Shown: piece by piece, positions 6,345 through 29,300 of the stretch
Layout of the letters: each line of letters opens with the position of its first letter
Position numbering within the stretch: the first letter of the stretch is position 1
Assembly (NCBI GenBank): GCA_958009085.1
Contig: OY253672.1
Coordinates: 1,116,001-1,180,000 of the forward strand
DNA from: Protoeuglena noctilucae
Taxonomy: Eukaryota
Direction of reading: 5' to 3'
Length of the DNA stretch: 64,000 bases
Position numbers and translations under genes: made by a program
The notes under the pieces: generated by a model
The model's input: the letters and a program-made list of their open reading frames with translations, nothing else
The model's database searches: none
What the model was told of the DNA's origin: nothing

Positions 6345-8913
6345 ATGTCGTCGACCTCCGCATCCCAGGGGGGCCTAGGGTGAGTCCTCGATACCGATGT
6401 GATTCAGCCGCTCGCGACTTTCACCGGCACGGGGCGTTTTCCGCCGGCTGAATGCCGTGGCGTAGCGTCCGGGTTCGATCCGCCGTATTCGCGCTAGGCG
6501 CGATTCGTCGTCCTCTCCTCACCTCAGGGCCCTCGATGTGACCATCGTCGTTGCTTCTATCGTCGCCGTCTTCGTCATAGGCTTCATGGCGTCCCGGAAC
6601 AAGTCGCGTGGGGGTACAGATGCAGCGGAATACTTCCTTGCGGGGCGGGGCACCTCCTGGTGGCTATGTGCAGCGTCCCTGTTTGGTGAGTGCTGCAGGG
6701 GGCCTGCGAGACCTCGATAGGGTGCTACCTACCACCCTCCGTCCCCAGCACGCCCCAGCAGGCATCATGTGAGAGCGTCCCCTTCCCTCCAGCAGCCTCT
6801 AACATCGGCTCCGAGCACTTCGTGGGCCAGGCGGGCACCGCTGCGGCCTCGGGCCTCGCGGTGGCCATCTACGAGTGGCAGGCAGCGTTCTTCCTCCTCC
6901 TCCTCGGTTGGGTCTTTGCGCCCATCTACCTGCGCCTGGCCCTCACGACCACCCCGCAGTACCTCGAGCGGCGCTTCTCCCTCCCCTGCCGGCTCGTCGT
7001 CGTCGCCATCACCCTTGCCAACTACGTCACCAGCAAGATCGCCGCCGGCCTCTATGCGGGCGCCATCCTCCTAGAAGTCACGGCTGGCCTCGGCATGTGG
7101 GTCTCCGCGCCCCTCATCATCCTCGCCACGGGCGCTTACACCGGTGAGAGCGGCGCTGGCATCGAGTCAGTCTCACCTGCGATGCACCCAACGAGCTGGC
7201 AGCTGCAGCTTGTACCAACAGCTGGCGTCCCGCAACCCCGCAGTGTCCGGCGGCCTGCACGCCGTGCTGTGGACGGACGCCCTCCAGATGGTCATCTTCG
7301 TCTTTGGCGGCGCCGTGGGGGCCGGTGTGGCCCTGTCGGCCGTCGGCGGCCAGGCCGGCCTCTTCCGTACGATGGCCTCGGCCGGCTTCCCCGCCTACCG
7401 GCACCTCGTGCGCCCCGCGGACGACGCCGCGCTCCCCGGCGCCGGCATGCTCCTGGGCCAGCTCGTCTCCAGCACCTGGTACTGGTGCCTGGACCACGAG
7501 ATGGCCCAGCGGGTCCTGTCCTGCCGCGGCCCCGCCCACGCCCGCCTCGGCTCCGCCGCCGCCGCGCTCCTCAAGGTCCTCCCCGTCTTCATCGTCGTCT
7601 TCCCCGGCATGTGCGCCCGCGCCCTCTACGAGTCCTGCCGCGCCTCCGGGGGCGCCCGCCACCCCACGTGGTGCTCTGTCGACCTGCGGGACCCCGAGGC
7701 CGCCAACCGCGCCTACCCGCTCCTCGTGGTGCGCGAGTTCCCGCCCGGGCTCAAGGGCCTCATGGTCGCCGCCTTTCTCGCCGCCATGATGTCCAGCCTC
7801 TCGGCCGTCTTCAACTCGGCCTCCACGGTCTTCACCTACGACGTCTTCTGGCGGGCCCTCGCGCAGCGCGGGGGAGAGTCGGCCGACCGCGCCGGCCACG
7901 TCGAGCTCTCGGAGCGCGCCGTGTCGTCCCCGGACATGGAGGGCGGCCGGCGGGTGTCGGCGGGGAGCCCGGGGGACGCGGGGGAGAGGGACCCGCGGGA
8001 GCCCTCGCCGGTGCTCTTCCGGAACGCCCTGTGGGACGACGACGAGGGGGACGAGGGGGCGCTGGGGGGTGCGACACCCCCCCTCGGGGGCGTGGGGTCC
8101 AGCCCGCTGCGGCCGCGGTCGCCCAGCCCGGCGTGGGAGGCGGTCAAGCTGGGGGAGGGGACGGAAGAGCCGACGGTGCGGGTGGCCGGGGCGGGCTCGG
8201 GGGGCGGGGCGGACAGGCGGGTCCCGACCGCGGCCGAGCAGCGCACCCTCGTGCACGTGGGGCGGCTGGCCACTGCGGCCATGGTGGTGTTCTCGCTGCT
8301 GTGGCTGCCCGTGATCCGCGGGCAGCACGGGCAGCTCTACCTGGTGGCCATGAGCGCCACGCTGCACCTGGCGCCATCGGTCGTCGCCGTCTTTGTGCTG
8401 GGCGTGGCCTGGTCCCGCGCCAACGCCCAGGGCGCGCTGGCCGGCCTCGTCACGGGCGCCGTGCTGGGCGCGACGCAGCTCGGGGTCTCGATGGCCCGGC
8501 ACGGCTACTGCGCGACGCGCGTGCGGCCCACCCCGGACGGCCGGGCCGCGCTGCACCTGGCCGGCTGGGACTGGCTCAGCTGCCTGCACTTCCAGTACTG
8601 GACCCTCATCCTCACGGGCGTCTCGGCCGCCGTCACCGTCGCCGTCTCGCTGGCCACGCCGCCCCCGCCGGAGGAGCGGCTCGAGGCGTGCCTGGCGGGC
8701 GGGGGAGGGGTGCGGGCGTGGCTCTCGGGGTACCGGCGCTTCGGGGCGGAGGAGAGCCCCCTTTCGCCGGGAGAGAAGGGCAAGGAGGTGGAGCGGGAGG
8801 AGGGGGGAGGGGGGGCTCCGCCGCTTGAGCAGCGGTGGGTGTCGCGGGCCGGCGTAGCGGTGTCGGGCATCGCCGTCGGCACCATCGTGACGCTCTTCGC
8901 GGTCTACTGGTAG
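6345..8913 (+). CDS. Sodium:solute symporter (SLC5/SGLT-like), multi-exon
   Basis: EYFLAGR, ASNIGSEHFVGQAGTAAASG, GGLHAVLWTDALQ, WYWCLDHEMAQRVL, GLKGLMVAAFLAAMMSSLSAVFNSASTVFTYD; start at 6345 inferred from a short exon plus GTGAGT intron. Confidence 0.9.
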
Positions 8914-8953
8914 CGCCGCCGTTGAAATCGATCGCTGACGGCGGCGGGGACAC

Positions 8954-8998
8954 CCCCCCCCCCCCCCCCAAGACTCAAGGCGTAATGGTTCAGCCCGG
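8954..8998 (-). mobile_element. Extremely 5'-truncated LINE insertion (last ~29 nt plus G-run tail)
   Basis: Matches the 3' terminus of the LINE copies starting at 9019 and 17600; flanked by 15-bp direct repeat CGGCGGCGGGGACAC (8939-8953 and 8999-9013). Confidence 0.7.
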
Positions 8999-10868
8999 CG
9001 GCGGCGGGGACACGCGCACCCCCCCAAGACTCAAGGCGTGATGGTCCAGCCCGAACACGTCTGACACCGGCAGGGTCAGAGCGTGGGTCAACCGCGGCAC
9101 GAGGGTGCGCACAACCTTCGTGAACACTGAGCATGGCTTCGGGGTCATCATAACCAGCCAAGAGCGCCGGGCACAGGGGGGCGAACCCCCCCACTGGCCC
9201 CTTGGGAACCACACTCCCAGAGTGCGTGGGGGCTTTGCAAAGCGTCCCGGGGGCGGCAGCGTCGTTAGGCCACCTGAACGCGTGCGGTGAAGGCAGCGGC
9301 AGCCCCAAGGGACTGGGGGGACCGGATCTCGGGGACCTGGGTCCCCCGCTCTGTCCCACAAGGGGGCGCCAAAGCGTACCAACACTCCGAACATGACGTG
9401 AAACCCTCGGCCACCGCCCCCGACTCTGCTAGGCCCCCGCCCGCCGGCGCCCGCCCGAGGTTTCCTTGCGGGCACCCCGAGACGAGCGCCGACGGGCAGC
9501 CGGCTGTCCCGCGGGGCCGAACCCGGGCTTTAGAACCCTGGAGGGCCGGCGACCTTGAACTCCTGCACGTCCAGGCGATACCGCAATGTGAAGTACTCAC
9601 CACGTCCCACGCACGCGCGAGCAGGCTACCCACACCATCACAGGAGTGCCATCTAGCAGACCCGGTGGGGCGCACCTTGCCGTGGCAGCCTATCACGCCC
9701 CCCGCCAGCAGAAGCAGCACAGCTGCGCCATGACAGAGCGATGCGTGCAGAGGGCGCCATGGGATACGCTGGCGAGCCCTCACCTGTTGCGGCCTCACCT
9801 GGGACTTACCTGCGCGGCGGCTGCCACCGCCCCTGGGACACCCTCCCACGCGGACCTGCAATGCGGACCTTCCCGGCCGCTCACGCGGCAGCCGGGAAGC
9901 CGCGCCACGAGAACCTGCGGCCATCGGCGTGGGCGAGGACGAGCCTGTCGCCCCGCTTCCCCAGCAGAGCAGCGAGGCGCCCTGCCCCAGTGACAGCCAG
10001 AGTGTCTTGGACCTCGGCTGCCACGATGGCGCCAAGCTGGGCATAGAGGCCTGCGGGCGTCGACGGGGAGCGCCAGTTCTCCCAAAGCTCTTGGCGGCGC
10101 CTCCAGATGAGCTTGAAAGCCGCGCCCACGGTGACCGCCCACGAGTACTGCGTGAAACGGCTGGAGGGAGGGGGGGCCAGGTGGAACACCGCCCGCGCCG
10201 AGAGGGCCGGGGCCCGCGCGGCCGCCTTGACCGTCTCCCACACCTCCTGGGCCCTGTCACAGGCCCAGAAGGCGTGGGCGACCGTGTCGTCGTGGGAGCA
10301 CTGCTCGCCATCCCTGCGGAGGAGGGGGCACGTGGTGAGGTCGAGCCAGTAGCAGTGCGATGCGGTGGCACGCGCGTCGGCCAGCGTCAGCCACAGCGCC
10401 TCGTGCATCTGCGGAGACAGGGGGAGAGCGTTGATGGTCTTGAGAGCGGCATGCATGCCCGCCGCCGTGACCCCGTCCGGCCCGTCCTGGGCCTCCCCGA
10501 GCGCCCCGGCCCGGGACCACTGCTCCACCTTGCGGGCGAGCCGCGAGGTGATGGTGGCCCGGTCGAAGGCCACCCCCACCGCATGTCCGACCGAGTACTG
10601 CTTAAGCGGAATGGGGACGGGCACTTCAGTGGGGCGCCGATGAGGCTCGAGGACCCACTGCATGGAGGGGGTGACAAGGGGCAGGTTGAGCTCCACCCAC
10701 CACGCGGGCTCGGGGGCAGGGCGCATAACGGCCGACGCGACCTGGGGGCGGGAAGGACGGGGGAGGAGTTGAGAGTCCTGCTGCGCACAGTAAGCCGCCA
10801 GCGTGTGCTCCGCCCTCGCCAGGTCTGCGGGGGAGGGGACCTGGCCTGCGGCAAGGGAGCGGAGGTGA

Positions 10869-11657
10869 TGATGATGATGTGCAGTTCAATAGCTGAGGGT
10901 GCTGAGGTCCATCAGGATCCTCGCCGCACGAGCTAGGCCCGCGCGACAGGGGCGCCTTCCCCCGGGGCTGCCGCACCCCGGGGGTTCCATTATCGCAGTG
11001 CATATGGCACTTGGCCCGCCCCCGCTAGGTCCCCCCACCCGAAGGGTATGGGGCCGCCGCCCCGGGCTCCAGCGCCCCTAGCCCCTTCGCCGAACCGCCG
11101 CCCCTGCCGGGACGAGCAACCGCAGGATGCCACGCGAGCGGGCCCCTGGGTACAAATACAACAACGAAGCAACGAAGCAGAGACAAGCCCCCATGCCGCG
11201 GCGCAGAGCACTTTCGCCCCATGCTAACAACGGACCCCACCCTGGTCCCACCGGCGCGGTCCCCGCGTCCCGCCGGTCGCTCTGCGTCCCCGACACGAAA
11301 GCCTGCCGTCCCTCTGCACGCACACAGCGCGCAGCGCCCCGAAAGCCCCCCTAGTCTCGGGGGCGCGGCTTGTCCCGACCAGCAGAACTCGAACGCGTCG
11401 TGCTGCCGCCTGGCGCCTGCCAGGGGATATGCGACCGCATCAGCCGTCGCGAATGCACGCAAAACACCCAACCGCACCCCCTCGCCAACTCGCCAGCCTC
11501 CGCCATGGCCAAACCACCGCCGAACCACCGCACTGCGCGCCACCGCGCCATTTTTTGTGAACCGGCTCTTCGTCACCGGCCATAAAGGCGCGGTGTCCAG
11601 AGGGCGCCACGAGGAGGCGGCCGGCGGATCGCGCCATCGCGCGTCCGAGTCCCCCCC
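10869..11657 (-). mobile_element. Non-autonomous retroposon (789 bp) with HDV-like ribozyme head and (CAT)n tail
   Basis: 17-bp TSD CAAGGGAGCGG[A/G]GGTGA at 10852-10868 and 11658-11674; empty site visible at 19432-19448; ATG repeats at left end; no credible ORF. Confidence 0.85.
11562..11657 (-). ncRNA. HDV-like self-cleaving ribozyme (candidate)
   Basis: Minus strand: P1 G-run, J1/2 hairpin, P2 CCGGCC, P3 GCC, L3 UCCUCGU, P3' GGC, P1' GCCCUCU, GG (P1.1), P4 CACCG..CGGUG, J4/2 ACGAA, P2' GAGCCGG. Confidence 0.75.
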
Positions 11658-11776
11658 CAAGGGAGCGGGGGTGAGCAGGGAGGGAGCCGCAGGCCGCAGG
11701 GGACAGAACCAGGCCCTGCCAAGGGTCCCACGCAACCAGGATACCCACGAGCTGCTCAGCCACGCCCATGGTCCAG

Positions 11777-12058
11777 AAAAAAAAAAAAAAAAAGGCCCGC
11801 GGCGGGATCGGAGCTCGACACGTCAGCACCTGGTGCCAGACGCGGGTGCCTCTCACTTCTCTGGACACCAACCGTGACCCGTGAGGGACCACGATCTCGA
11901 GCTCGTCATTTCCCGCCGCGGGTGCCGGGCACAGGGGGGCGAACCCCCCCACTGGCCCCTAGGGATCCACACTCAGAGAGTGCGAGGGAGCTTTGCAAAG
12001 CGGCCCGGGGGCGGAAGCGTCATCAGGCCACCTGAACGCGTGCGCTAGGGGAGTGGCG
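11777..12058 (-). mobile_element. Short 5'-truncated retroelement related to the LINE 3' UTR, with T17 tail on the sense strand
   Basis: 14-bp TSD CGCCCATGGTCCAG (11763-11776 and 12059-12072); 11924-12044 homologous to 9166-9286; A17 on + strand at 11777-11793. Confidence 0.75.
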
Positions 12059-12221
12059 CGCCCATGGTCCAGGGGGGGGGGGGTCTTTTCCAAATCGATA
12101 CCGACATGTCCGGCAGCTGGCTCGCCTGGCCGTGGGACGTCCCACAGTGCCGTGGCGCGAGAGGGAGGAGGTCAGCCGAGTCCATGTTGATATAGCGGCC
12201 GATCGCCAATAATGATATCGC

Positions 12222-12293
12222 GATCCCGTGGCGCAGCGGTAGCGCGCCCGCTTGACACGCGGAAGGTCCCCAGTTCGATCCTGGGCGGGATCA
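12222..12293 (+). tRNA. tRNA-Val(GAC)
   Basis: Cloverleaf GATCCCG/CGGGATC, D-arm GCGC, anticodon loop TTGACAC, T-arm CCCAG-TTCGATC-CTGGG; C-A mismatch at top of anticodon stem. Confidence 0.85.
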
Positions 12294-12358
12294 GACCTTT
12301 CGGCCCAGACACGGGTTTACAGCGTTTTGCCCCGCTCGTGAGCGCGAGCGAGCAAAAG

Positions 12359-12431
12359 TGGCACCTAGGAGACTCGAACTCCTGCCCCCAGATTCAGAGT
12401 CTGATGTCCTAACCACCTAGACGAAGGCGCC
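12359..12431 (-). tRNA. tRNA-Gln(CTG)
   Basis: GGCGCCT/AGGTGCC acceptor, loop CTCTGAA, T-arm AGGAG-TTCGAGT-CTCCT, TTTT terminator just downstream. Confidence 0.93.
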
Positions 12432-12978
12432 GACGTTGTATACCAGATAATGGGGTTTCCGCATCATAAATACCTGATAGACGCGTACGGAGCACGGATG
12501 CCCTGCAGTCGTCCCTGCGTCGGGCTTTGGCGGTCGAATTCAGCTGCGGCACGACCCGTAGACCCAGCACGGACACCGTGCGCGTGTCCCTCGCACTCTG
12601 GGAGTGTGGGGCCAAGGTCGTCAGCGTGACGGGCCAAGGTCATCTGGGCGTGTGGGGGCGAGGAGATGAGGGACGGGACAAGGCCGACGGGCGTGGGAGA
12701 GGACGGGCCAAGGGCCAAGGTTGACGTGCGGGAGCGAGGAGCGGGGTCGCGTCGTGGGTCTCTGGGCACACGGCCGAGTGGGTCGTGCCGGCGCACGCAC
12801 CCGGAGCGGGGCGGTCTGGGGCGGTGCACATGAGAGGCAGCCGGCCCTCAGGGGCGCAGCGTGGGTGAGCGGGGCGCCCAGGGGCAACGCTGCGCCCCCC
12901 AAGGAACGCCGTCTGCGTTCGGACCGCCCCCACCGCCCTCGCGTCCGGGCCAGCGTGGCCGGGTGGGCGAGCCAGCCG

Positions 12979-13371
12979 GGCCGCCTGAGGAGGAGGGGAG
13001 GAGGGTAGGGAGCGGGGGATGTCATGATTGGCCGCACATCAGCTACACAGATCGTCATTAGCCTCGGCCTCACCTTTTGTAATAGACGCCCGGGGGTCTC
13101 CACGGAGGGCCCCCGCGGCTGCATCGTCCCACTCTGGGACGGCGATCCAGCCTCAGGGCGCAGCGAGGGGGCTAGGGGTGCAAGAACCCGGGGTGGGCGA
13201 CCCCTTTGCCTTCGGGTGGGGAGACCTAGCGGGGGCGGGCCACGTGCCATATGCACTGCAACGATGGAAACCCCGGGGTGTCAGCTGCCCCGGGGGACGG
13301 CACTTCTGCCGCAAGGCGTGGCTCTGAGAGTCATAGCACCCCTCGACTGTTGAATCGCTCATCATCATCAT
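12979..13371 (+). mobile_element. (CAT)n-tailed retroposon; 5' boundary uncertain and may extend toward ~12590
   Basis: Near-identical reverse complement of 19783-20175; ends in (CAT)4; no TSD found. Confidence 0.8.
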
Positions 13372-14970
13372 GGGTACCTCCGGGCCGTCCTCACCCATGC
13401 GGGCCTGCCCGCCCCCTTCGTGGGGGCGGCGATGGCCCTCCAGGTGGAGTCGAAGGCTGTGATTGCCTTCGAGAGCGGCTGTTCCCGGCCCTTTTCTATA
13501 GAGCGCGGGGTGAAACAGGGATGCCCCTTGAGTCCCCTCCTGTTCGTCGTTGCCATAGAGCCGCTGGCATGCCGCCTTCGGTCCCTCGCCGCATCCGAGC
13601 CGCGGGCGCTCGGTGTTTCCCTATCCCCGGGGTCGTTCGGCAGCCTCCCCCCGCAGGATCTGGCATCGCGCTTTTTTGCGGACGACGCGGGTGCCCTGAC
13701 CGCAGACCTGCCCGCAGCATGGGAAGCGCTGTCGGCGACCCTGGGGGATTTCGCTGCGGCTTCTGGTCTCGAGGTCAATGCAGCCAAGACGGCAGTCTAC
13801 CGGCTTGGCAGGGGCAACCACGCCTCATTGGAGGCAGCAGCGGTGGCACGGGGCTGCCGCTGGTCCATGCCCACAGGGCCCAGCGAGGGCGTGCGCTACT
13901 TGGGCGCCCATACTCGTGGGGCACTGGCGCAGGCGTGGTCGAGCACGCTGGGTGTGATGGTCCAGCGTGGCACCGCCATCGCAGGGATGCATATGTCCAT
14001 TCAGGGGAGGGCGCGGGCGGCGAGTGCCTATGTGGCAAGCACGGCGAGTTACCTACTCGAGACGTCCCCCGCCCCTGCCTCTATGGACCAAGAGGCGGAG
14101 AAGCTTGTCAACACCCTGGTGCAGGGCAACCGCGCGGCTGGATCCCTGTGGCGTCGCACGGCTGACTGCATGGTCTCTGGCCCGCGCGCTGAGGGTGGGC
14201 TGGGGGCGACCCGGCCCACTGTGCATGTCCCAGCGCGCCGCATGCGCATTTTGGCAAAGATCCTGACGGGCGCGCCTGGCGTTGGCCCGGCTCGCCACGT
14301 GCTGGACCGGGCCCTGACGGTCCTGGGCGGCCCAGGCTGCGTGTGCCAGGCGCGCCGGCGCGGCACGGGCGCGCACGGGCACCGAGCCCCTGTAGCGCCT
14401 CGCAAATCTGGACGACGATCTTCTTGGCAAGGTCCCTGGCCGACGTGGTGTCGCCCAAGCGAGGGTGCGGCAAACGCTCCCAGGACCCCTTGCGCCCCGC
14501 AGATGCGGTTCGCACGCGAAGGAAACAACTTACGCACACCAGCCGGACCTTGGCCGTCTTGCGAGCCTGCGGGAGGGTCGGGAAGCTGGCCGGGGTTGGG
14601 GCTCGGGGGTGGGAAGTGCGCTGGGCTGCAAGGGTGCCAAGCGAGGCAGGGGCGCCTGCGCCTCCCCGCACCAATGCTGCCAGGGCTACGCTTGAGGGCG
14701 TCACTAGAGCACTCGGCCCTGTCCTGTCCCCTGCCGCCTACGACGCCCTCCCTTACCACCTCCGCCCCCTCGCTGTGGGCCAGGTCCCCTTCCCCCGCTC
14801 ACCTGGACAGGGCCGAGGGCGCGCTGGCAGCCTGTTGCTCCCAGCAGGACGCGGAAGCCCTCCCCTGCCCCTCAACACCAGCGTGCGCCCTGCGTTGGGC
14901 CCATACCCCGCGCCTGCGTGGAAGGTAGACCTTAATCTGCTTTCGACCGGGCCAGCATCACCAGCATCAC
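13372..14970 (+). mobile_element. L1/Tx1-like LINE ORF2 fragment (reverse transcriptase domain), disrupted, runs into assembly gap
   Basis: GYLRAVLTHAGLP, ERGVKQGCPLSPLLFVVAIEPL, FFADD, SGLEVNAAKT, VRYLG, PRAEGGLG; downstream part homologous to ORF 18461-19780. Confidence 0.92.
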
Positions 14971-15170
14971 NNNNNNNNNNNNNNNNNNNNNNNNNNNNNN
15001 NNNNNNNNNNNNNNNNNNNNNNNNNNNNNNNNNNNNNNNNNNNNNNNNNNNNNNNNNNNNNNNNNNNNNNNNNNNNNNNNNNNNNNNNNNNNNNNNNNNN
15101 NNNNNNNNNNNNNNNNNNNNNNNNNNNNNNNNNNNNNNNNNNNNNNNNNNNNNNNNNNNNNNNNNNNNNN
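14971..15170. other. Assembly gap (200 N)
   Basis: Run of N. Confidence 1.
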
Positions 15171-15777
15171 GTGCTTAGGTGAAACACCCTGCAAGCCGGG
15201 AGGGCCGGCGACCGTGTCCTCAGGCATGAACTGCTCCCCGTTTCTGCGAAGGAAGGAGGCCCGTGGTTCGGTCGAGCCAGTAGCTGTGACGCGCGAGTGT
15301 GAGCCACAGCACCTGGCCTATCGGCACACCCCCCCTTCCCCTGCCAACCACAGCACAGATGGCGCAGGACGGCTTGGCAACGCACCAACGCATCGAGCCG
15401 ACTCCCTTCCCCCGGCAGGAATGATGTCTCCGCCTACCGCAGGGAACAGACTCGTGGTGACGCGCAGGCCCAGGCCGCCGTGAGAGCTGCGCAGGCACGC
15501 TGGACGAGAATCCGACGTGCAGCAAAAGACGGTCATCCCAGCCTCCGCCGCGCTGAGCGCTGCGCACGCTCACCGCCTGCAGCAGCGCCCCAGCCCGGTT
15601 CTCACGGAGCGCGTCTGCCCGTGCAAGCCCGCTGAAGGCCCCTGTTGTGCCCGCAGAGGCCGCTATAAACCTCCAGCTCACAGCGTCGGAGGGCTTGATG
15701 GTGTTCCCCCTCGCTGTTGCGTGCAGTCGCGGATGAGGCGGCGCTTGTCGTGGCAGATGTGGCCAACCGTCTCCTAG

Positions 15778-16092
15778 AGGGCCACCCTGTTCCCGCAGGG
15801 TTCGCCCTCCTCAACTCCCTCCGCATGGCGGTGGCCAAGGTCTTTGGCAATCGCCTCCTCCGTAAGGAGGGGGACCATGCCTGCGTCATGGAGCGCCTGG
15901 TCCTCGTGGACCAGGCGCTCCATGGCGCAGGCATGGTCCCCCTCCTTACGGAGGAAGAAGACCTTGGCCACCGCCCTGCGGAGGGAGGTGAGGAGGGCGA
16001 TGGGTCGGTAGTTAGTCCAGTCAGCTCTGGACCCCCCTTATGCAGCAGCCAGATCGCTGCGTCCGAGAACCCTGCGGGAACAGGGTGGCCCT
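15778..16092. repeat. Long inverted repeat / fold-back hairpin
   Basis: Inner 48-bp stem 15856-15903 with 15908-15955 around loop TCGT; middle stem 15802-15843 with ~15958-16000; outer 26-bp perfect stem 15778-15803 with 16067-16092. Confidence 0.92.
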
Positions 16093-17599
16093 GCTGGGCG
16101 GGGGCACCCTGCGTCTCAGAGGAACTTTGCCACCACTGCAGGGTCGCGGGGCACAGCGTTGTAAAGGTCGGCCCACTGCGCCCTCATGAACGCCTTGGCC
16201 ACTTGGCCTTAGAGCGTCTTGTCCTGCGGGGCGAAAGCGCTCCGTGCTGCCCAGGCTGGGGCGCTGGTCCTCGAGGCGAGCCTGCGCCGCCTTCGCCGCG
16301 GCCTGGGCCTGAGTGATGGTCTCTTTCCCTGATGCGGTGGGCGGCGGAGAGGGAGCGAGTTTTGGCAGCTAGGGCGCCCCTGCGTTGATGGGGTCCTGCA
16401 CCAAGAGGGGGCTGAGGGACGCAACTTTGGTGCAGAGCTCAACGACGAGGGCCGAAGGGGAGCCAATGGCAGCCGTGAGCGGGAAGGCAGAGCGCACTCG
16501 CGCCGCCAGGTGCGCCCGGCAGTGTGCTCAAGCACGCTTCGGGTCCCCCGCCGAGAGGGTCAGGACCACGGCCAGTAAGCCGAGACGGGGCCACATGGCG
16601 CACCACGGGGTGCGTCTTGGTGAGCAGCGACGCGCTGGCATGCACGCGATCCATGCGCAAAGCAGCAAAGCGCCACAACCGCGGGTCCCCGCGCGCCCGA
16701 CGGGGTCGCAACCGAGTCGCTATATAGTCATCCCCATGTAGACGGGCGGACGGACCCGGGCGGGCACGAGCGGGCCCGGCGCGCCCGGGCTGCAGTTCGA
16801 ACGCTCCAGGCCCGCCCTTGCCAGGCTCGCGCGGAGAAACCAGGATTCCCGGCCTCCTCGCCTCAACAACCACGCAATCAGTTCTCCAATAGCCGCAAAA
16901 GGAAACAAGGACGTCCCGGCGTGGCGGCGGCGAGCTCCGAGTGCGGCAGCTGATGCCCCGTGCCCGCACGCCGCCTACGACCGGAAAGGGCCGCATTTGG
17001 GCAGAGCCTGTCACCTTTCCATGTCATGCATGGCCAGAAGCGACGATCGGGTCGCCTGCCGCCGTGCCACGGCTTGGCGGGCCGCAAGAAATCCGGGGCG
17101 CAACGGCGGCGGAAGCACGGGGAGACACAACGTCCCAGCATCTGCGCACGACATTTGAGGATAGCCGCGCAACGCAGACTAGCGACAGATCGGCTGCGGG
17201 TCCCGGGAAACGTGAAACAAGCTCAGCAGCGCCAGTATGCATCAGCTCGTGCAGTTGCCGTGCCGGCACGGACCGCACCGGACCCTGGAAGCAGCCACGG
17301 CTCCGGGCTCATCATTTCTTACCAGAGGCGCCGGGAACAGGGAGCCCAGCTTCTCTGCTGGGTCCTAGAGGTCGGCGATCAATCTGTGCGCAGTGCAGGG
17401 GGCGGGTGCAGAGCAAAGTGGCCCCGGGGCGGCGCGTCTGAAGGCCACACGTACGCGGGTGGTTAGAGAGAGTCCAAGGGATCACGCTTCTGGCTGATGG
17501 AACGCCTGTGCGGCCGCCCAGCAGCGATTTGAGCAAGCATGTGACCCTCCGCCCCTCCCCGGGCACTGTTCTAACCACCCATTCAGGTCGGGGACTTCT

Positions 17600-20201
17600 C
17601 CCCCCAAGACTCAAGGCGTAATGGTGCAGCCCGAACACGTCTGACACCGGCAGGGTCAGAGCGTGGGTCAACCGCGGCACGAGGGTGCGCACACCCTTCG
17701 TGAACACTGAGCACGGCTTCGGGGTCATCATAACCAGCCAAGAGCGCCGGGCACAGGGGGGCGAACCCCCCCACTGGCCCCTTGGGAACCACACTCCCAG
17801 AGTGCGTGGGGGCTTTGCAAAGCGTCCCGGGGGCGGCAGCGTCGTTAGGCCACCTGAACGCGTGCGGTGAAGGCAGCGGCAGCCCCAAGGGACTGGGGGG
17901 ACCGGATCTCGGGGACCTGGGTCCCCCGCTCTGTCCCACAAGGGGGCGCCAAAGCGTACCAACACTCCGAACATGACGTGAAACCCTCGGCCACCGCCCC
18001 CGACTCTGCTAGGCCCCCGCCCGCCGGCGCCCGCCCGAGGTTTCCTTGCGGGCACCCCGAGACGAGCGCCGACGGGCAGCCGGCTGTCCCGCGGGGCCGA
18101 ACCCGGGCTTTAGAACCCTGGAGGGCCGGCGACCTTGAACTCCTGCACGTCCAGGCGATACCGCAATGTGAAGTACTCACCACGTCCCACGCACGCGCGA
18201 GCAGGCTACCCACACCATCACAGGAGTGCCATCTAGCAGACCCGGTGGGGCGCACCTTGCCGTGGCAGCCTATCACGCCCCCCGCCAGCAGAAGCAGCAC
18301 AGCTGCGCCATGACAGAGCGATGCGTGCAGAGGGCGCCATGGGATACGCTGGCGAGCCCTCACCTGTTGCGGCCTCACCTGGGACTTACCTGCGCGGCGG
18401 CTGCCACCGCCCCTGGGACACCCTCCCACGCGGACCTGCAATGCGGACCTTCCCGGCCGCTCACGCGGCAGCCGGGAAGCCGCGCCACGAGAACCTGCGG
18501 CCATCGGCGTGGGCGAGGACGAGCCTGTCGCCCCGCTTCCCCAGCAGAGCAGCGAGGCGCCCTGCCCCAGTGACAGCCAGAGTGTCTTGGACCTCGGCTG
18601 CCACGATGGCGCCAAGCTGGGCATAGAGGCCTGCGGGCGTCGACGGGGAGCGCCAGTTCTCCCAAAGCTCTTGGCGGCGCCTCCAGATGAGCTTGAAAGC
18701 CGCGCCCACGGTGACCGCCCACGAGTACTGCGTGAAACGGCTGGAGGGAGGGGGGGCCAGGTGGAACACCGCCCGCGCCGAGAGGGCCGGGGCCCGCGCG
18801 GCCGCCTTGACCGTCTCCCACACCTCCTGGGCCCTGTCACAGGCCCAGAAGGCGTGGGCGACCGTGTCGTCGTGGGAGCACTGCTCGCCATCCCTGCGGA
18901 GGAGGGGGCACGTGGTGAGGTCGAGCCAGTAGCAGTGCGATGCGGTGGCACGCGCGTCGGCCAGCGTCAGCCACAGCGCCTCGTGCATCTGCGGAGACAG
19001 GGGGAGAGCGTTGATGGTCTTGAGAGCGGCATGCATGCCCGCCGCCGTGACCCCGTCCGGCCCGTCCTGGGCCTCCCCGAGCGCCCCGGCCCGGGACCAC
19101 TGCTCCACCTTGCGGGCGAGCCGCGAGGTGATGGTGGCCCGGTCGAAGGCCACCCCCACCGCATGTCCGACCGAGTACTGCTTAAGCGGAATGGGGACGG
19201 GCACTTCAGTGGGGCGCCGATGAGGCTCGAGGACCCACTGCATGGAGGGGGTGACAAGGGGCAGGTTGAGCTCCACCCACCACGCGGGCTCGGGGGCAGG
19301 GCGCATAACGGCCGACGCGACCTGGGGGCGGGAAGGACGGGGGAGGAGTTGAGAGTCCTGCTGCGCGCAGTAAGCCGCCAGCGTGTGCTCCGCCCTCGCC
19401 AGGTCTGCGGGGGAGGGGACCTGGCCTGCGGCAAGGGAGCGGAGGTGAGCAGGGAGGGAGCCGCAGGCCGCAGGGGACAGAACCAGGCCCTGCCAAGGGT
19501 CCCACGCAACCAGGATACCCACGAGCTGCTCAGCCACGCCCTCAAGCACCACACGGCTGGCATTGGCACGGGGAGGCACAGGCGCGCCCACAACGCCCAG
19601 CCCCTCAAGCGCCTTGCAAACCTGGATTATTACCCTTTTGACGGGGTCCTTGGCCGACGTCGTGTCGCCCAAGCGAAGGTGCAGCAGCCGCTCCCAGCGC
19701 GTGCCCCACAGCCGCCCGCACCACGACGCCTCCAGCACCTCCGAGGCCACGGCGCCCGGGGAGTCCCAGGCCATCTTGAGCCATGATGATGATGAGCGAT
19801 TCAACAGTCGAGGGGTGCTATGACTCTCAGAGCCACGCCTTGCGGCAGAAGTGCCGTCCCCCGGGGCAGCTGACACCCCGGGGTTTCCATCGTTGCAGTG
19901 CATATGGCACGTGGCCCGCCCCCGCTAGGTCTCCCCACCCGAAGGCAAAGGGGTCGCCCACCCCGGGTTCTTGCACCCCTAGCCCCCTCGCTGCGCCCTG
20001 AGGCTGGATCGCCGTCCCAGAGTGGGACGATGCAGCCGCGGGGGCCCTCCGTGGAGACCCCCGGGCGTCTATTACAAAAGGTGAGGCCGAGGCTAATGAC
20101 GATCTGTGTAGCTGATGTGCGGCCAATCATGACATCCCCCGCTCCCTACCCTCCTCCCATCCTCCTCAGGCGGCCATCTTGAGCCCTGCGCGGCGGCTGA
20201 C
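17600..20201 (-). mobile_element. 5'-truncated L1/Tx1-like LINE, copy 2, with G6 tail; interrupted at 19783-20171
   Basis: 9-bp TSD GGGACTTCT (17591-17599 and 20202-20210); ORF2 C-terminus 18461-~19782 with CCHC finger; near-identical to copy 1. Confidence 0.9.
19783..20171 (-). mobile_element. 5'-truncated (CAT)n-tailed retroposon nested in LINE copy 2
   Basis: 14-bp TSD GGCCATCTTGAGCC (19769-19782 and 20172-20185); (ATG)4 at left end; matches 12979-13371. Confidence 0.88.
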
Positions 20202-20374
20202 GGGACTTCTGTTTTTTGTTAGGTTTTCCGAATCTGAAGCCTGCCAGGCACTCAGCCCCCTCCCCTGCGTGTACGGAGGCTCGCCTACGAACGCTTGCAG
20301 TGCTCAACATTGCACGGGTATATATAGTGTAATTTCGACGACTTTCTACAAGCAGCTCCAAAGACGCGAGCTCG

Positions 20375-20447
20375 TCCCTCGTAGTCCAGGCGGTTAGGAT
20401 ACCTGACTCTCACTCAGGAGACCCGGGTTCGACTCCCGGCGGGGGAA
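20375..20447 (+). tRNA. tRNA-Glu(CTC)
   Basis: TCCCTCG/CGGGGGA acceptor, loop CTCTCAC, T-arm CCGGG-TTCGACT-CCCGG; upstream TATATATA (~20319), downstream TTTT. Confidence 0.95.
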
Positions 20448-20494
20448 CGATTTTGCTGCTGCTGCTCAAGCCTGCAGGGCCTGCGAGAGCAAAA

Positions 20495-20568
20495 TGGATC
20501 CGCCCAGGATCGAACTGGGGGCATCTCGCGTGTGAGGCGAGCGATCTAACCAACTGATCTACGGATCC
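20495..20568 (-). tRNA. tRNA-Val(CAC)
   Basis: GGATCCG/CGGATCC acceptor, CTCGC-CTCACAC-GCGAG anticodon arm, T-arm CCCAG-TTCGATC-CTGGG, TTTT terminator, upstream TATA-like tract. Confidence 0.95.
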
Positions 20569-20772
20569 GGGACTTGAAGCGGTCGACGATATATAACGGT
20601 GAAATTTGCATATATATACCTCACAGTCTGCGTCGTAATCTGCATTCATTTCCGGCGCAAATCTTGCAGCAGTGACGTCGTTCTTTTGACCTCTGCACTT
20701 CTGACGCATATTCAACACATCGCCGAAAAGGCGCCGCGCCAGGGCTACCCCAGGGAGGGAGGTATGGACTAC

Positions 20773-23337: not shown

Positions 23338-26300
23338 ATGTCGGTGGACGACCTTCTCCGCCTCGCCACGGATCTGGTGGCTCTGAGTGGCCCCAAGGGT
23401 GAGCGGCGCCGCGGTTCAAGCAGGGAGGGGAGGCCGAAAGCCAACTGCGTCACGCCCCTCCGTCCCGGACTCCGCCGCAGGTATCTCCGCTGCGGACTTC
23501 CCCGCCGAGCTGTCGTCATATGCAGAGCGCTCGGATGTGCCGCCTCCCTCTGCTTCGGTGGCGGGGCGCGTCTGGAGGGCTCTCCCCGGGGTCCCGGGCA
23601 TTGAGCTCGTGGACGCGCCGGATGGCGCGCCATCCGAGCTCGCAGGGACTGCAGTCGCATGTCGGAAACTTCGAGACACGGCGCTGGGGGTCGTCGAGTT
23701 GCAGGAGTGCACGGAGGGCTCGTGGGACGGGCGGGACCGAGAGGCGCTCGAGGTTCGAACGCGCGGCGCCCTGTTGGCGCGATTTCGAAGACGTTCAGGC
23801 CGCGACAACCTGTATGACTTTCACGTCTCCTCGCTCGCCCACCTGGCCCGCAGAAGCTCGGCCAGGCGCGCCACAGCGGCCGACTGCAGGCGGACTTGGC
23901 GACCGAGCTGGGCGTCAGCAATACGTCCTTCTTCCACACCATCAACAGCCTCGTCATGAAGAGCCTCGCGGTCAAGTCCCCCATCGTCGTCCCCGGCGCC
24001 AACGGCGGCAAGACCTCCACCAACATCTGCTTCTTGACGCGCTTCGCCCCCAACGTCAACACCGGTGCGGCATCAGGCGCATGGCCGTGTAGCACACCGC
24101 CCCCTCTCGCGTCGCCGCGCGCATGCATATCTTCACCTTATTCCCCCGCAGCCGGGAACAAGCGTTTGGTGCCTGCGACCGAGGCGGAGGGGGGAGGAGA
24201 ATTCGGTGCGTACCGTCCACTTGCCTGCCGGGCCCTGCTCGCGGCTGCCACAGGATTCCGACGCGGCGGGCCTGCTGGACGTGATGACGATTAAGTGCTG
24301 TCTGATGTATTATTGTCCTCGCCTCGCAGCCCTGGCGGACGACGCAGACATGATGGCGCGCATTTCGCGACACCTCGAGGCAGCCGGGGACAAACCCGTG
24401 GTGGAATCCGAGCTCAAGGTTCTTTTGGGTTTCTCCGGGACACCGGGGCACCGGAGCTGGCGGCGCATCAGGTGAGGCAGCCGACTTGCGGCACGGACAC
24501 AACCGCGACTGCTCTGTGACCAGGGCAATGCACCATGTCGCTGTGCGGCGCTCGATGTCAGCTGTTCGCGTGCCCGCCGCGCTCAGGGGGAAGTTGGAGG
24601 CTGGCAACCACCTGAAGCAGGTGCCAGCCAAGGTCGGGGGCAAGAGCGTCACCGTCCTCCGTCTGCTCAAGCCCTTCCGGTGAGGCTGCTGTGCATGCGC
24701 ATGCCAGTCGGTGACGCGTCTGCGCATGCTCAAGCCCTGCTGATCAGGCGCGGCGACGAGGGCGCACTTGTGTAACTCCAGTCCGCGCCTCTGCCGGCCT
24801 TCCACTGGCATGGGCGGCTTTGGTACCAATCAGGTTGTGCTGCCGACTCCTGCGGACACCAGCAGCAGATGCCACCTGCGACATTCCCCGTCTCCATTCG
24901 CAGCCGCGACAGCGCAGCCGTGGTGGAGGAAGAGGAGGAGACGTCACCGGTGCTGACGCCCATCGTCGAGTCCGGCCTGGCCCGTCAGATCCTGGACCAC
25001 GTGGTTTCTGGCACGCACGTCACGACCACGCAGGTCTGGGACGCCATGGGCGTGTCTGGCAAATACGAGGCCAAGGTCCTGGCCACGGTCGAGAAGATGT
25101 TCGGGCTGAAGAAGACCATGGTGAGTCCAGCGGAGCCTCGCTGTGGCGACAGGGAGCAGACGAGTTGCGTCCTTGGGCGTCGCTTCCCATGCACCATGCA
25201 CCATGCACCCACCCCACGGTCGGCACAAGCGACCGAGGTTCACTTCACAAGGCGTGGCCTTCTCCGCAGCATGGCAAAGGCCGCAGCAACTACTTCGTGT
25301 ACGAGGCGCCCCCGGAGGTGTTGGCGCTGTACCGGGAGAGGAACCGCCCCACGCTGGCGGCCCTGGAGGGCTGGCAGAGGGACCTGGGGGTGGATGCGGA
25401 GGAGCCGCGGGGGCACGCGGAAGGGGCAGCGGCGGACCGGGCAGGGCCGAGCACCAGCGATGCGGACGCTCCCAGGCCCGCCGTGGCTGCCACGCCCCCG
25501 ACGGTCCAGGCCGTACCCGTCCCCGCCCCCGCCCCGACCCCGGCACAAGCGGCGCCCCCGCCTGTGGCCGCCCGCGCGCCAGTGCCTGTGCCCCCTCTTG
25601 CGCCAGTGGTGGGCGAGGACTCGGGGTCGTCGGACGATGGAATGGCAGTCGACGAGGAGGGCCCGGCGGAGGAGGAGGGGCGGGAGGCGCGGGAGCCGTC
25701 CTTGCGCACGTACGCGCGAGTGGAGACGCTAATACAGGCGAGTGGGGGATCGTTTGTGGGGCCATGAGTGTCACTGATGCAGGCGAGTGGAGGATCGTTT
25801 GTGGGGCCATGAGTGTCACTGATGCAGGCGAGTGGGGTGTTGGTGGTGCAGGCGAATGGGGGGTGCTGGTGCGGGTGAATGGGTCGTTGCTGGTGCAGGC
25901 TAGTTGAAGGGCGAGCGAGGCAGCGCGGGGCTCGGCTGCAGGGCGGTGGGCGGCTCGCCGTCCTCGCACAGACACGAGGCTGCCTCTCATTCGCAGGCGA
26001 TGGAGCGCGAGGGCGGCATCCTTGTGCGGGGCGTCATGGCTCAGGAGCTTGCGGCTGCCTCCTCTTCCAAGCGTCCCGACCTCAAAGTCATCCAGCGGCT
26101 CATGCAACACGCGGTGGCATCGGGGAGGGCGCGCATTGTGTCAGTGCCATACGAGGGGAAGAACGGGAAGCAGCGGTCGGTCGAGGCGCTCGTGTCGGCC
26201 GAGATCGACGTGAACGATGACGTCATGTGAGGGCAGAGGGCCGTGGGCACCGCAGCAAGAGAGTGGCAGTGGCGACGCGTGTGCAGGGGCAGGTCGCGCC

Positions 26301-29300
26301 GAATGACTATCATGACCATGAACCGGACCGCACGAGCGCATTATGGCTGTTGGTGTCGCCCTGGAATGCTGCCGCGTTCGCTTCCGCCCGCAGCGCGGAG
26401 GTGCAGGAGCGCTTCAGGCGCAGCGCGGTAGACGTGCGCAAGAAGAGGGGCCCCGTCCAGGCCCACGAGCAGCTCAACAGGGACGACGTGTTCACGGTGC
26501 TGGAGCCGGACAGGTGAGCGAGCGCCTGCGGGGCGGGAATGGAGGGCCGGCGGGGCGCAGGGCGGCCGTGCTGACTTGCGCCGCGCTGGGGAGGATCCGA
26601 CGTCCCCGACCTCCGCTGCGGCGCAGGACTCTCGCCGTGAAGAAGAAGACTGCTCGAAACGAGCCGCGGGGCAATGCGGAGCACCCGCAGAAGCTCCTGA
26701 TCGCGAATGGGTATGAGGCGGCCAAGGGCCGGCGCGCGGCGCGCGTGCACGCGCTGCTGGTGTCGCTGCTGGGCTGGGGAGGGGGCGAGCGGCGCGTCCC
26801 GTCGCCCGCGGAGCTCGTCAAAGAGCTGCAGAGGCGAATACCCGCGAAATCGGGGCTCGTGGCGTCCAGCCTGGGCATGCCTCACATCCGGGTGCTGGAA
26901 GGCGAGGGGCTGCTGCCGGGCTCAGGGCGCCGCCGCAGCGCGCCGTGCACGCCGGCGCTGACGCAGCGGTGGTGCTGCTGCTGTTCGCGCAGATCGCCAG
27001 GCGGCCCCGGAGAGGCCGGAGGAGGCGGAGGGCGCGGCGGGTGCGGGAGGGCAGGAGGCGACCACCCCGGCCCCGGGCCTGCCGCACGTGACGGAGGATA
27101 CGATCCTCTTCGACGACCTGCTGGCCCAGATGCCCGTGGCGACGGCCGCGGCGTGCATGGGGTTCCCGGTTCGGGAATTGGACGTGGTGGCGTTGGACGC
27201 GCAATACGCCCGGATGAGCGACGTGCCGGACGACCTGCGGGACCCACTGCTGGACTCGCAGAACGTGAAACGCCTGGTAAGGGACGCTGCTTGCTGGCAC
27301 GCAACATGCGGGACGTGCAGAACGTGGCAGGTGTGGTGAGGGCAGTGGGGGTGAAGTGGGGGCGCCCGCAGGCGTGAGGCATGGCCCGTGCGATGGGATG
27401 GCCATAACAGCTGGCCATAAGAGCTAACTATGAGAGCCCGTCGTGATGCTACGTTTCACAATACAGAGGAGCACCCTTTGCAAAGACGTGTCTGACGCTC
27501 CGCCTCTCTGTTTCTACGACTGCAGCACAACTCGGTGCTGCTCCTCCAGTCCTTGGGGCTGGTCAAGATCCGGACGTGTATGGGCGTCAAATTCACCCGG
27601 GGCGTGAAGGTCAAGGCCTATATCAACCTCATCGACGTCGCGCGCAGCGTGGACCTGCAGGCGAGGCCAATGCTGAGCACTGACCTGGATGTGAGACGGT
27701 GTGGCTGCCCTGTGGTCTGCGCTGTGAGGTTTGTACTGTGAGACATGATCTGCAGCAAGCGAGTGGCCGTCCCTTTGGATTTGCAGGGCCTTTGTCTGTG
27801 CTGTGAGACATGGCTTGTCGCGAGTAACAGTTATTGCCCCTCTGGATTTTAAATTGCAGGTCCCCGTCGACCCCATCGGTGCCCGCGCGAGCCTCATGGC
27901 GGAGTTCGATGCCCTGGAGGCCCTGGCGCAGAAGTCTTGGGGAGCGAAGGGCGGCAGGGCACATGGCTCGTCGGGGTCGAGCAGCGGGTCAGAGGACGGC
28001 GGCGACGGGGAGGGAGAGGCGAGTGCTTGGGTGTGGAGTGGCACAGTGCATTGCGGGGAGGGCGAGTGCTTGGGTGTACATGAAGTGGCACGGTGCATTG
28101 CGGGGAGGGCGAGTGCTTGGGTGGTTGGACTAGGAATCACCCACGCTATAGTCGACCAATGCTATGGCGTGTCATAACATCTTGGATGGCTGCCCTTCAT
28201 GCGACGTGACGACGTGCAACATGGGATGGCCCGCCGCGCTTATGCCCACGCCGCCATCACGCCCGCGCCGACGCAGGGCGGTGACCTGCTGGCCAAGCGC
28301 TTACGCCCGGTGTTCGTCTTTCCGGAGCACGTCAAGACGGTGGTGGAGACACGGCCGGAGCACTTTGCGCTGGACCAGCCGGGGACCCTCGAGGACTACT
28401 GGCTGCGGCTGGAGTGGCTGCTGGAGCGGCACCTGATTCCCATGCGATACACGCCGCTCGGGAAGGCCATGCCGAATATCTTCCGGAGGCGAGCGAACGA
28501 TGCGTGCTTCGAGCGGTGGCGTGGGGTTGCCGGGTATCCGGTTGGTGCCACGGGAGCAGCCAATCGCAGGGCGTGGAGCCCAGTCTGGTGGTGCCTGGGT
28601 CGAAGTGCGCGCCTCCAGATCCCTGGTCCCTGCCGTTTGTGCGCTCGCAGGAACACGGTGGTGTTTTCGGCGCGCCTGCCTCCCCTCGACGTGGAGGTGC
28701 GGAAAGACATCCGGGAGAAGCTGCAGGATCTGGGCATCTCGCAGACGCAGGCGAGTGCGGGGGCGAAGGTTGCTGCGGTGTGGGTGTGGCGCAGCACGGG
28801 CGGGTGCAGGTGGGCTGCAGGAGGGGTGGTGGCCGGGAGTACGGCAGTCCTGGGGGCAGTAGTTGAGCCTGCAGTTCCAACACTGTAAAGCGGCACAGGC
28901 AGGGGTAGTTGAGCTGTGCGCTGGTCAGGCGTGGTACACGGTGCCCATGGTGGCGAACATGTCTAAACGAGCTCGCAAGATGGTGTCTGTGCGACGATTC
29001 GGCAATGCTGTTGCCCTCTCGCAGGTCACTCCCACGGACTGGCTGGACTGCAAGCGCCTGGCGGACAGGATGGGGCTGCCGTACTCGCAAATCATCCGCA
29101 TCGCTCGCGAGAGGTGGGGGGCGGTGGTTGTCCCAAATGCCCTGATGGCGCGTGCTGACGGGCGCGGAGCTACGACCCAGCAGTGTCGTGCTCACGTTCC
29201 TCATGTCTTCAATTCAGCTCTTGCATCCCGTGCTGCCACATCGTCTGCTCCCTGCGCTGTGCCCGCGCAATCGGAGCGTCCGTCCACTGCGCCCCGCTGT

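Follow-up and report, generated by a model that had tools for sequence, protein, structure and literature searches.

The 64,000-nucleotide window analyzed here (contig OY253672.1 of the Protoeuglena noctilucae assembly GCA_958009085.1, positions 1,116,001 to 1,180,000) carries stacks of long interspersed nuclear elements (LINEs) and short tailed partner elements upstream of three of its four tRNA genes, with tRNA-proximal edges that agree within ~40 bp at this single locus. Every element with a defined 3' end lies with its tail distal and its 5' end proximal to the nearest tRNA gene, as read from the strand of the second open reading frame (ORF2), from homology of the 3' untranslated region (3'UTR), and from tails lying inside target site duplications (TSDs). 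We consider integration guided by the tRNA genes, at a set position and in a set orientation, to be the best reading of this arrangement and a likely one, with the RNA polymerase III (Pol III) complex that assembles there for transcription (TFIIIB, TFIIIC, and Pol III itself), or the chromatin that it organizes, as the presumable guide. Repeats were mapped by self-BLAST, ORF2 relatives by tblastn, tRNA genes by ARAGORN, and RNA families by Rfam. An earlier note on the same DNA had described eight insertions upstream of tRNA genes, each with its 5' end facing the gene; self-BLAST, tblastn, and TSDs establish all eight as real, either as 5'-truncated copies of non-long terminal repeat (non-LTR) retrotransposons or as short tailed partners.

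Exactly four tRNA genes are detected by ARAGORN, as two convergent pairs: tRNA-Val(GAC) (12222-12293, plus strand; Rfam tRNA model, 62.5 bits) with tRNA-Gln(CTG) (12358-12431, minus strand), and tRNA-Glu(CTC) (20375-20448, plus strand) with tRNA-Val(CAC) (20495-20568, minus strand). Rfam recognizes them as well, lists three of the four at the gathering threshold, and finds no further Pol III-type RNA gene in the 64-kb window. Minus-strand elements lie upstream of tRNA-Val(GAC) and tRNA-Glu, plus-strand elements upstream of tRNA-Gln, and tRNA-Val(CAC) is the sole tRNA gene that has no insertions. The first element base is reached 139 bp (at the end of a G-run, position 12083) or 150-161 bp (by TSD) from tRNA-Val(GAC) and 157 or ~178-179 bp from tRNA-Gln, and the element-free DNA amounts to 138 (to 12083) or 149 bp at tRNA-Val(GAC), 156 or 177 bp at tRNA-Gln, and 164 bp at tRNA-Glu. 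Upstream of tRNA-Val(CAC), a lycopene cyclase reading frame ends at 20621, ~52 bp from the 5' end of the tRNA gene, and position -150 falls inside it; since an insertion at that position would break the lycopene cyclase gene, purifying selection would account for the absence of copies there.

On the tRNA-Val(GAC) side, the outermost insertion is a mini-copy of LINE family A (8954-8999, minus strand), which consists of the last ~30 nt of the element with a 16-nt G tail and is flanked by an exact 14-bp TSD, GGCGGCGGGGACAC (8940-8953 and 9000-9013). Next follows A copy 1 (9019-11764, minus strand), a 5'-truncated copy with a G7 tail, the 855-nt 3'UTR, and the C-terminal part of ORF2 (92% amino acid identity to the family protein P0014), interrupted by the nested element Bn (10869-11657, minus strand), itself 5'-truncated and (CAT)n-tailed, whose 17-bp TSD (10852-10868 and 11658-11674) has one mismatch. 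Closest to the tRNA gene lies a T17-tailed element (11777-12060, minus strand) with an exact 12-bp TSD, CCCATGGTCCAG (11765-11776 and 12061-12072), the proximal repeat of which is 150-161 bp from tRNA-Val(GAC). The earlier note was right about this copy but placed its 5' end at 12058; it may be 12060 or, because the TSD coincides with sequence that is maybe internal to the element's family, the end of the G-run at 12083, and in a metagenome contig the copy has a loose end at 12077 and continues like family A.

Upstream of tRNA-Glu, A copy 2 (17600-20201, minus strand) comprises a G6 tail, the 3'UTR, and ORF2 from amino acid ~866; it is likewise 5'-truncated and is bounded by an exact 9-bp TSD, GGGACTTCT (17591-17599 and 20202-20210), 165-173 bp from the tRNA gene. 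A short element, B (19783-20171, minus strand), lies within copy 2, 16 bp from its 5' end, and has an exact 14-bp TSD, GGCCATCTTGAGCC (19769-19782 and 20172-20185), 190-203 bp from tRNA-Glu. These duplications, which share no consensus among them, bear out the target sites at ~150-163, ~165-173, and ~190-203 bp that had been proposed. Copy 1 (9020-10868 plus 11658-11767) and copy 2 (17600-19541) match each other in self-BLAST at 99.1-99.7% identity.

The tRNA-Gln side is occupied by plus-strand elements: the additional repeat C (12610-12978), found by aligning contigs to the region; a second copy of B (12979-13371, ~393 bp, with a (CAT)4 tail at 13360-13371); a fragment of the A-family reverse transcriptase (RT) (13369-14355, ORF2 amino acids 637-965, 91% identical) that has no 3' end of its own; and a diverged LINE fragment of greater age, inverted in its 5' segment (14356-14970, by tblastn), that enters an N gap in the assembly. 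Repeat C had been missed before, leaving the plus-strand elements to begin 548 bp from tRNA-Gln; its inclusion brings this distance down to 157-179 bp. Also absent from the earlier list were the older fragments between 14356 and 16669, some of which lie on the "wrong" strand as an inverted 5' segment or a foldback.

By side, the orientation is uniform: four of four elements are on the minus strand upstream of tRNA-Val(GAC), four of four are on the plus strand from tRNA-Gln up to the N gap, and all are on the minus strand from the gap toward tRNA-Glu, the only opposite-strand pieces being the inverted 5' segment and one arm of the foldback. When the tRNA-Val(GAC) stack is peeled by coordinates, the 5' junction of copy 1 comes to lie at about -161 and the mini-copy TSD at about -166 to -180, the tail of copy 1 being 5 bp from that TSD. 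The T-tailed element sits at the 5' junction of copy 1, and Bn is 107 bp inside copy 1, so that together with the nested B, later insertions entered within 0-107 bp of the tRNA-proximal edge of older copies, despite the kilobases of older transposable element available.

Elsewhere in the window such elements are nearly absent, as had been claimed. All tblastn matches to ORF2 relatives fall within 9893-19798, no RT or transposase domain occurs in the 99 ORFs of at least 200 amino acids beyond the stack, and tblastn finds no ORF2 match in ~20 further segments without codon periodicity, ~15 kb in all, a search that non-coding single-copy repeats would escape. To gauge the role of chance, we used a rough null model with a 75-bp band, four tRNA genes, and one orientation, set against the non-periodic DNA only, under which the chance per insertion is 0.0095. 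For the three founder insertions this yields 8.5e-7, which a post-hoc factor of 53 raises to 4.5e-5, and for six events 7e-13 before and ~4e-11 after that factor; as nested events are not independent, the true chance lies between the three-founder and six-event figures.

The middle of the spacer between tRNA-Gln and tRNA-Glu has the order expected of two converging stacks. Within the 14356-14970 fragment, tblastn reads amino acids 1147 to 1051 on the minus strand and directly thereafter amino acids 1144-1256 on the plus strand (14363-14939), which gives it the look of a 5'-inverted, plus-oriented copy. The gap of 200 N (14971-15170) falls exactly where plus-oriented elements yield to minus-oriented ones, and a contig from a run carrying a species label extends the plus-oriented copy 185 nt into it. 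Past the gap, the minus-oriented pieces are an old A-like fragment directly following it (15177-15288) and the 15908-16669 part of an old LINE fragment with a foldback (15549-16669, minus strand, ORF2 amino acids 215-597). A plus-strand match at 15583-15980 represents one arm of this foldback, formed by the N-terminal part of the RT, with a palindrome centered at 15905/6 and arms that are 98%, 95%, and 72% complementary. Plus-oriented elements on the tRNA-Gln side and minus-oriented ones on the tRNA-Glu side of the gap are as expected from two stacks growing from two tRNA genes. The middle fragments resemble the family at 40-78% amino acid or 72-79% nucleotide identity, while the tRNA-proximal copies are 99.7% mutually identical, and divergence rising away from the tRNA genes is the expected age order.

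Two further observations concern this middle region. The foldback (15549-16300) draws sub-threshold matches to miRNA precursors in Rfam. Between the old LINE fragment and copy 2, ~925 bp of otherwise GC-rich DNA (16667-17590), with a TATA-like tract near 16718, match no protein or RNA family, and a search of this segment for an ORF1 or for the N terminus of an apurinic/apyrimidinic endonuclease (APE) gave no match even at E 50.

The plus-strand ORF at 13354-14928 contains an RT domain (RVT_1, E 5e-10), its nearest database relative is P0001 (90% identical), and protein matches outside the A family reach only 22-36% identity. Since the minus-strand ORFs in both copy 1 and copy 2 give 92% matches to P0014 and P0020, the RT fragment and the two copies can be assigned to a single family, A, with the window copies 91-92% identical in amino acid sequence to the P0014/P0020 family by tblastn. 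The full ORF2, assembled from the cluster mates P0020 and P0014 (offset by 208 amino acids according to tblastn), has ~1,520 amino acids. Its APE is followed by an RT that contains a FADD box, then by a long stretch of unassigned sequence and, toward the C terminus, by a Cys/His motif. Both catalytic domains are recognized in P0020 (Exo_endo_phos, E 2.9e-8; RVT_1, E 1.6e-22), an RNase H was not found in P0014 or P0020, and the window copies yielded no ORF1 sequence. Judged from relatives that encode both APE and RT, the A family looks competent for retrotransposition. Among solved structures, human L1 ORF2p is the best match to ORF2 (E 3.9e-18 over the RT), with R2 at 1.7e-11.

At its 3' end, the A element has the 855-nt 3'UTR followed by a G-run of 6, 7, or 16 nt, which lies inside the TSDs and is therefore a tail. 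The T-tailed element shares with A a ~155-nt module of the 3'UTR (11924-12077 versus 9166-9320, 86.5% identity) but has a different terminus. In contigs from the species-labeled runs, A-type and T-type 3' modules are also joined in other ways, for example 11854 to 9458 and 11983 to 8963, which suggests that subfamilies swap 3' ends as modules. A metagenome scan with the 18-nt 3' end of A returned nine loci, all of them chance matches (49-64% GC, no likeness beyond 23 nt, and no tblastn match), and a scan of viral contigs with P0001 returned none.

The short partners are distinguished by (CAT)n tails, so that the stacks hold three tail types (G-run, T-run, and (CAT)n); the idea that the target site is common to at least two tail-type families thus stands, with the number raised from two to three. 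B is a non-coding element of ~390 bp; its two copies begin at the same 5' position of the element, carry a (CAT)4 tail, and are 99.7% alike (12979-13373 against the reverse of 19781-20175 in self-BLAST), and its 5' end recurs beside another flank in a contig from an RNA library. Bn has a B-related 3' end with a (CAT)4 tail, and the RNA-library contig of its family reaches 392 nt further 5' than the truncated copy in the window. For C, the repeat body spans 12612-12926 and the boundary falls at ~12609/12610, where a contig has a loose end at 12609; the word depth of the C contig is 1771 versus 170.6 for the unique flank contig in run X4 (~10x). Other C copies join position 12902 to a B-type 3' end at 13336, from which we deduce that C is plus-oriented. 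We considered whether B could be a tRNA-derived short interspersed nuclear element and rejected this possibility, as no part of B, Bn, or C resembles a tRNA, 5S RNA, or 7SL RNA in an Rfam search at E<=1. A 22-nt piece that borders C on its 5' side (12588-12609, plus strand, sense) resembles the 3'UTR of the A/T family (95% over 22 nt, E 5e-5). This piece and the 12061-12083 segment at the 5' junction of copy 1 resemble internal sequence of another LINE subfamily and are possibly template-switch filler from reverse transcription.

Together, these features would fit an active APE-type LINE family with G-run and T-run subfamilies and with partners that are short or non-autonomous and end in (CAT)n (B, Bn, and C). 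Such elements would integrate by target-primed reverse transcription, with position and polarity set relative to the tRNA gene: the first nick, at the site of the tail, would be made ~140-200 bp ahead of the 5' end of the mature tRNA, leaving the element 3' end away from the tRNA gene and the usually truncated 5' end toward it. A new copy would enter between the tRNA gene and its predecessor, or would cut into the 5' end of that predecessor by a few bases, so that older copies would be displaced outward, the youngest copy would lie nearest the tRNA gene, and the stacks growing from tRNA-Gln and tRNA-Glu would meet in the middle of their 8-kb spacer.

Several considerations weigh against guided integration. 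The evidence comes from one locus with three tRNA genes, the conservative founders-only value of 4.5e-5 cannot be neglected when ~250,000 windows are scanned, and the nested events, as stated, depend on one another. For copy 1, the plus-strand B, and C, no TSD was found, which leaves only the junctions as a guide to their target positions, while the TSD of the T-tailed copy is subject to the overlap with possible family sequence described above. If 16667-17590 is native DNA, the old fragment adjoining it was not inserted near -160. The RT fragment at 13369-14355 lacks a 3' end, and the switch of orientation falls in the N gap. Finally, selection could yield part of the pattern, as only ~200 bp of native DNA originally separated the stop codon of the upstream sodium:solute symporter (SSF) gene from tRNA-Val(GAC).

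This last point leads to an explanation that dispenses with targeting, in which insertion would be near-random, copies would survive only in the dispensable flanks of tRNA genes or within older copies, and copies transcribing toward a tRNA gene would be harmful. The genome is compact, with codon periodicity over 58% of the window, the native spacer upstream of tRNA-Val(GAC) was short, and the sole tRNA gene with -150 in a reading frame has no insertion, as selective survival would have it. Yet tblastn matches to ORF2 are absent from the other ~15 kb of non-periodic DNA, later insertions cluster at the 0-107 bp proximal edge rather than in kilobases of neutral older element, and the agreement of the three edges within ~40 bp is left unexplained; we therefore regard a safe haven of this kind as unlikely, though deserving of some weight. 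Less probable still is the recognition of local DNA or chromatin instead of the Pol III machinery, by an endonuclease that prefers a certain sequence, structure, or open or nucleosome-edge site. AT-richer tracts do lie beside two of the sites (at tRNA-Val(GAC), TTTTCCAAATC past the upstream G-run, and in front of tRNA-Glu, TTTTCCGAATC), the T-rich 11-mers that adjoin these two of the three sites resemble each other, and the 9-mer GGCTCGCCT occurs near -100 of both genes (12119-12127 and 20278-20286, ~95-103 bp upstream). The tRNA-Gln site, however, has no such tract, the TSDs lack a consensus, and when the four upstream regions are locally aligned in pairs, no motif common to the insertion sites emerges, only TATA-like boxes ~30-55 bp upstream of all four tRNA genes. 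Three sites that share no motif favor positional over sequence recognition.

It is also conceivable, given a marine metagenome source, a 200-N gap, and copies 1 and 2 that are 99.7% alike, that repeat contigs were piled beside the tRNA genes during assembly or that one stack was copied from the other. We give this very little credence: the copies differ in their truncation points, TSDs, and nested elements, the 12035-12641 stretch recurs as an unchanged contig in two species-labeled runs, and a flank contig passes from unique DNA into the mini-copy, though fewer than 31 letters inside. Guided integration thus retains our preference. With respect to the earlier proposal of an independent, Pol III-tethered LINE system in an alga, local clustering, fixed orientation, repeated proximal-edge insertion, an age gradient, and an algal host are all observed; the Pol III tether remains inferred, and an independent origin of the system is plausible.

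The host is a marine green-lineage alga with a GC-rich, compact genome, as follows from the G+C content of the window (~68%), its gene content, the lycopene cyclase, and the sources of the sequencing runs. The host genes have few introns and include a sodium:solute symporter, lycopene cyclase, SF3b1, Mog1, THOC5, and CNOT1; the lycopene cyclase shares at most 52-55% identity with those of named green algae (chlorophytes), and the window DNA is found both in marine metagenome runs and in runs carrying one species label. Directly past the stop codon of the symporter gene, 8914-8953 forms a hairpin with a 9-bp stem, and as the mini-copy TSD lies in its 3' arm, the tRNA-Val(GAC) stack occupies the 3' end region of this gene.

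Contigs from four sequencing runs (including X4, X1, and X7) were aligned to 8600-14970, with word depth not to be equated with copy number. A 607-bp contig identical to 12035-12641 (0 differences in both species-labeled runs) covers the edge of the T-tailed element, tRNA-Val(GAC), tRNA-Gln, and the first 31 nt of C, and as it runs unbranched through both tRNA genes, it suggests that these sequences are single-copy. Its word depth is 0.2-0.3 of that of the neighboring unique contig in both species-labeled runs (36.6 versus 170.6 in X4 and 21.5 versus 72.7 in the other run), an unexplained difference that was not used. The 13499-13924 stretch of the RT fragment has little or no contig cover at 95% likeness in X4, X1, and X7, from which nothing was concluded. 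In X4 and X1, three "skip" joints connect the A 5' end head-to-head with the B 5' end (8974 to 13204, 9465 to 13243, and 10284 to 13282) at depths of 24-121, comparable in magnitude to those of the single-locus contigs here; they would suit other, similarly flanked tRNA loci, with sides of only 22-30 letters and unspecified letters in between that make them a hint and not evidence. Outside the stack, self-BLAST detects short, tandem-like direct repeats of 82-91% identity at 25729-25846, 28012-28123, 31222-31325, and 31855-31973.

Whether the green lineage (Archaeplastida) evolved tRNA-guided LINE integration on its own appears to us an evenly balanced question. What would set such a system apart is an offset of -140 to -200, strict polarity, and its use by three or more families that differ in their tails (G-run, T-run, or (CAT)n). 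One nucleosome comprises 147 bp of DNA, and the offset here is about that size, with which the Pol III complex bound to the tRNA gene, or a nucleosome positioned by it, would be compatible. An independent origin of the targeting is plausible, the RT being only distantly like anything named and the offset unlike that of TRE5 of Dictyostelium. If true, homing to tRNA genes in a marine picoalga would extend the convergence to a third eukaryotic supergroup and represent a new solution to the problem of finding a safe site in a compact genome, with a guide other than direct TFIIIB contact at the start site suggested. The ~160-bp offset would help to ask what is recognized, be it a factor, the polymerase, or the flanking nucleosome. 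Such elements would mark safe landing sites in an alga and would account for the concentration of repeats, and of assembly difficulties, at tRNA flanks in a genome that is compact elsewhere.

Homing to tRNA genes has been reviewed as an adaptation to compact genomes for the LTR elements of yeasts and for both LTR and non-LTR elements of dictyostelids (PMC5006619, PMC5911963), and algae and plants are mentioned in neither of these two reviews. The full-text literature searched contained no algal case, and in the portions at hand, the genome papers of two marine prasinophyte-type algae (PMC7455551, PMC13213038) report nothing on tRNA-linked LINEs. Viewed against the class criteria of Spaller et al. 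2016 for tRNA gene-targeting non-LTR retrotransposons, the elements described here have a fixed orientation and relatives with APE and RT domains, and within this window they recur at similar distances from three of the four tRNA genes (edges at 139-178 bp, TSDs at 150-203 bp). Compared with the TRE family of dictyostelids, they lie 139-203 bp upstream rather than at offsets of ~50 bp upstream or ~100 bp downstream.

The closest counterpart in design is TRE5-A of Dictyostelium, an APE- and RT-encoding non-LTR element of a compact genome that inserts upstream of tRNA genes with its 5' end facing the gene and leaves 5'-truncated copies (PMC5911963, PMC5006619, as excerpted). According to the same excerpts of PMC5911963, TRE5 elements integrate 40-54 bp upstream in opposite transcriptional orientation, with ORF1 contacting TFIIIB, and TRE3 elements integrate downstream. 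By contrast, the offset here is ~140-200 bp, the tails are G-runs, T-runs, or (CAT)n instead of oligo(A), the host is a green-lineage alga and not a dictyostelid, and the elements are known from their ORF2 and 3' parts, whereas the ORF1-TFIIIB contact is a feature of TRE5-A. Because offset, tails, host, and protein family all differ, the elements are not a TRE. A precedent for convergence is provided by NLTR-A and NLTR-B of D. purpureum and Polysphondylium pallidum, independent non-LTR lineages that have acquired upstream tRNA targeting; in the available text of PMC5006619, they insert 2-6 bp and ~50 bp (39-64 bp) upstream, respectively, and differ from P0014 and P0020 also in carrying an RNase H downstream of the RT.

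With L1, the family shares the best structural match of ORF2, an N-terminal APE, a C-terminal Cys/His motif, 5' truncation, an inverted 5' segment, and variable TSDs, and the APE-RT-CCHC architecture of the L1 clade fits ORF2, the likeness of the RT being drawn from structure-database match scores. Unlike L1, the elements have no poly(A) tail, their ORF2 of ~1,520 amino acids includes the long unassigned region after the RT, and their site would be chosen by position near tRNA genes and not by a T-rich nick site. In its placement, the system is reminiscent of yeast Ty1, which inserts upstream of Pol III genes, up to ~1 kb away and into nucleosomes, in a window well beyond the TFIIIB footprint (PMC5911963, in part), and whose integrase binds the AC40 subunit of Pol III (PMC7459421, in part). 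Ty1 differs in being an LTR element that relies on an integrase, and the portions of both sources at hand record no fixed Ty1 orientation; as far as these accounts extend, the offset of about one nucleosome observed here is closer to the Ty1 window than to the sites of Ty3 or TRE5.

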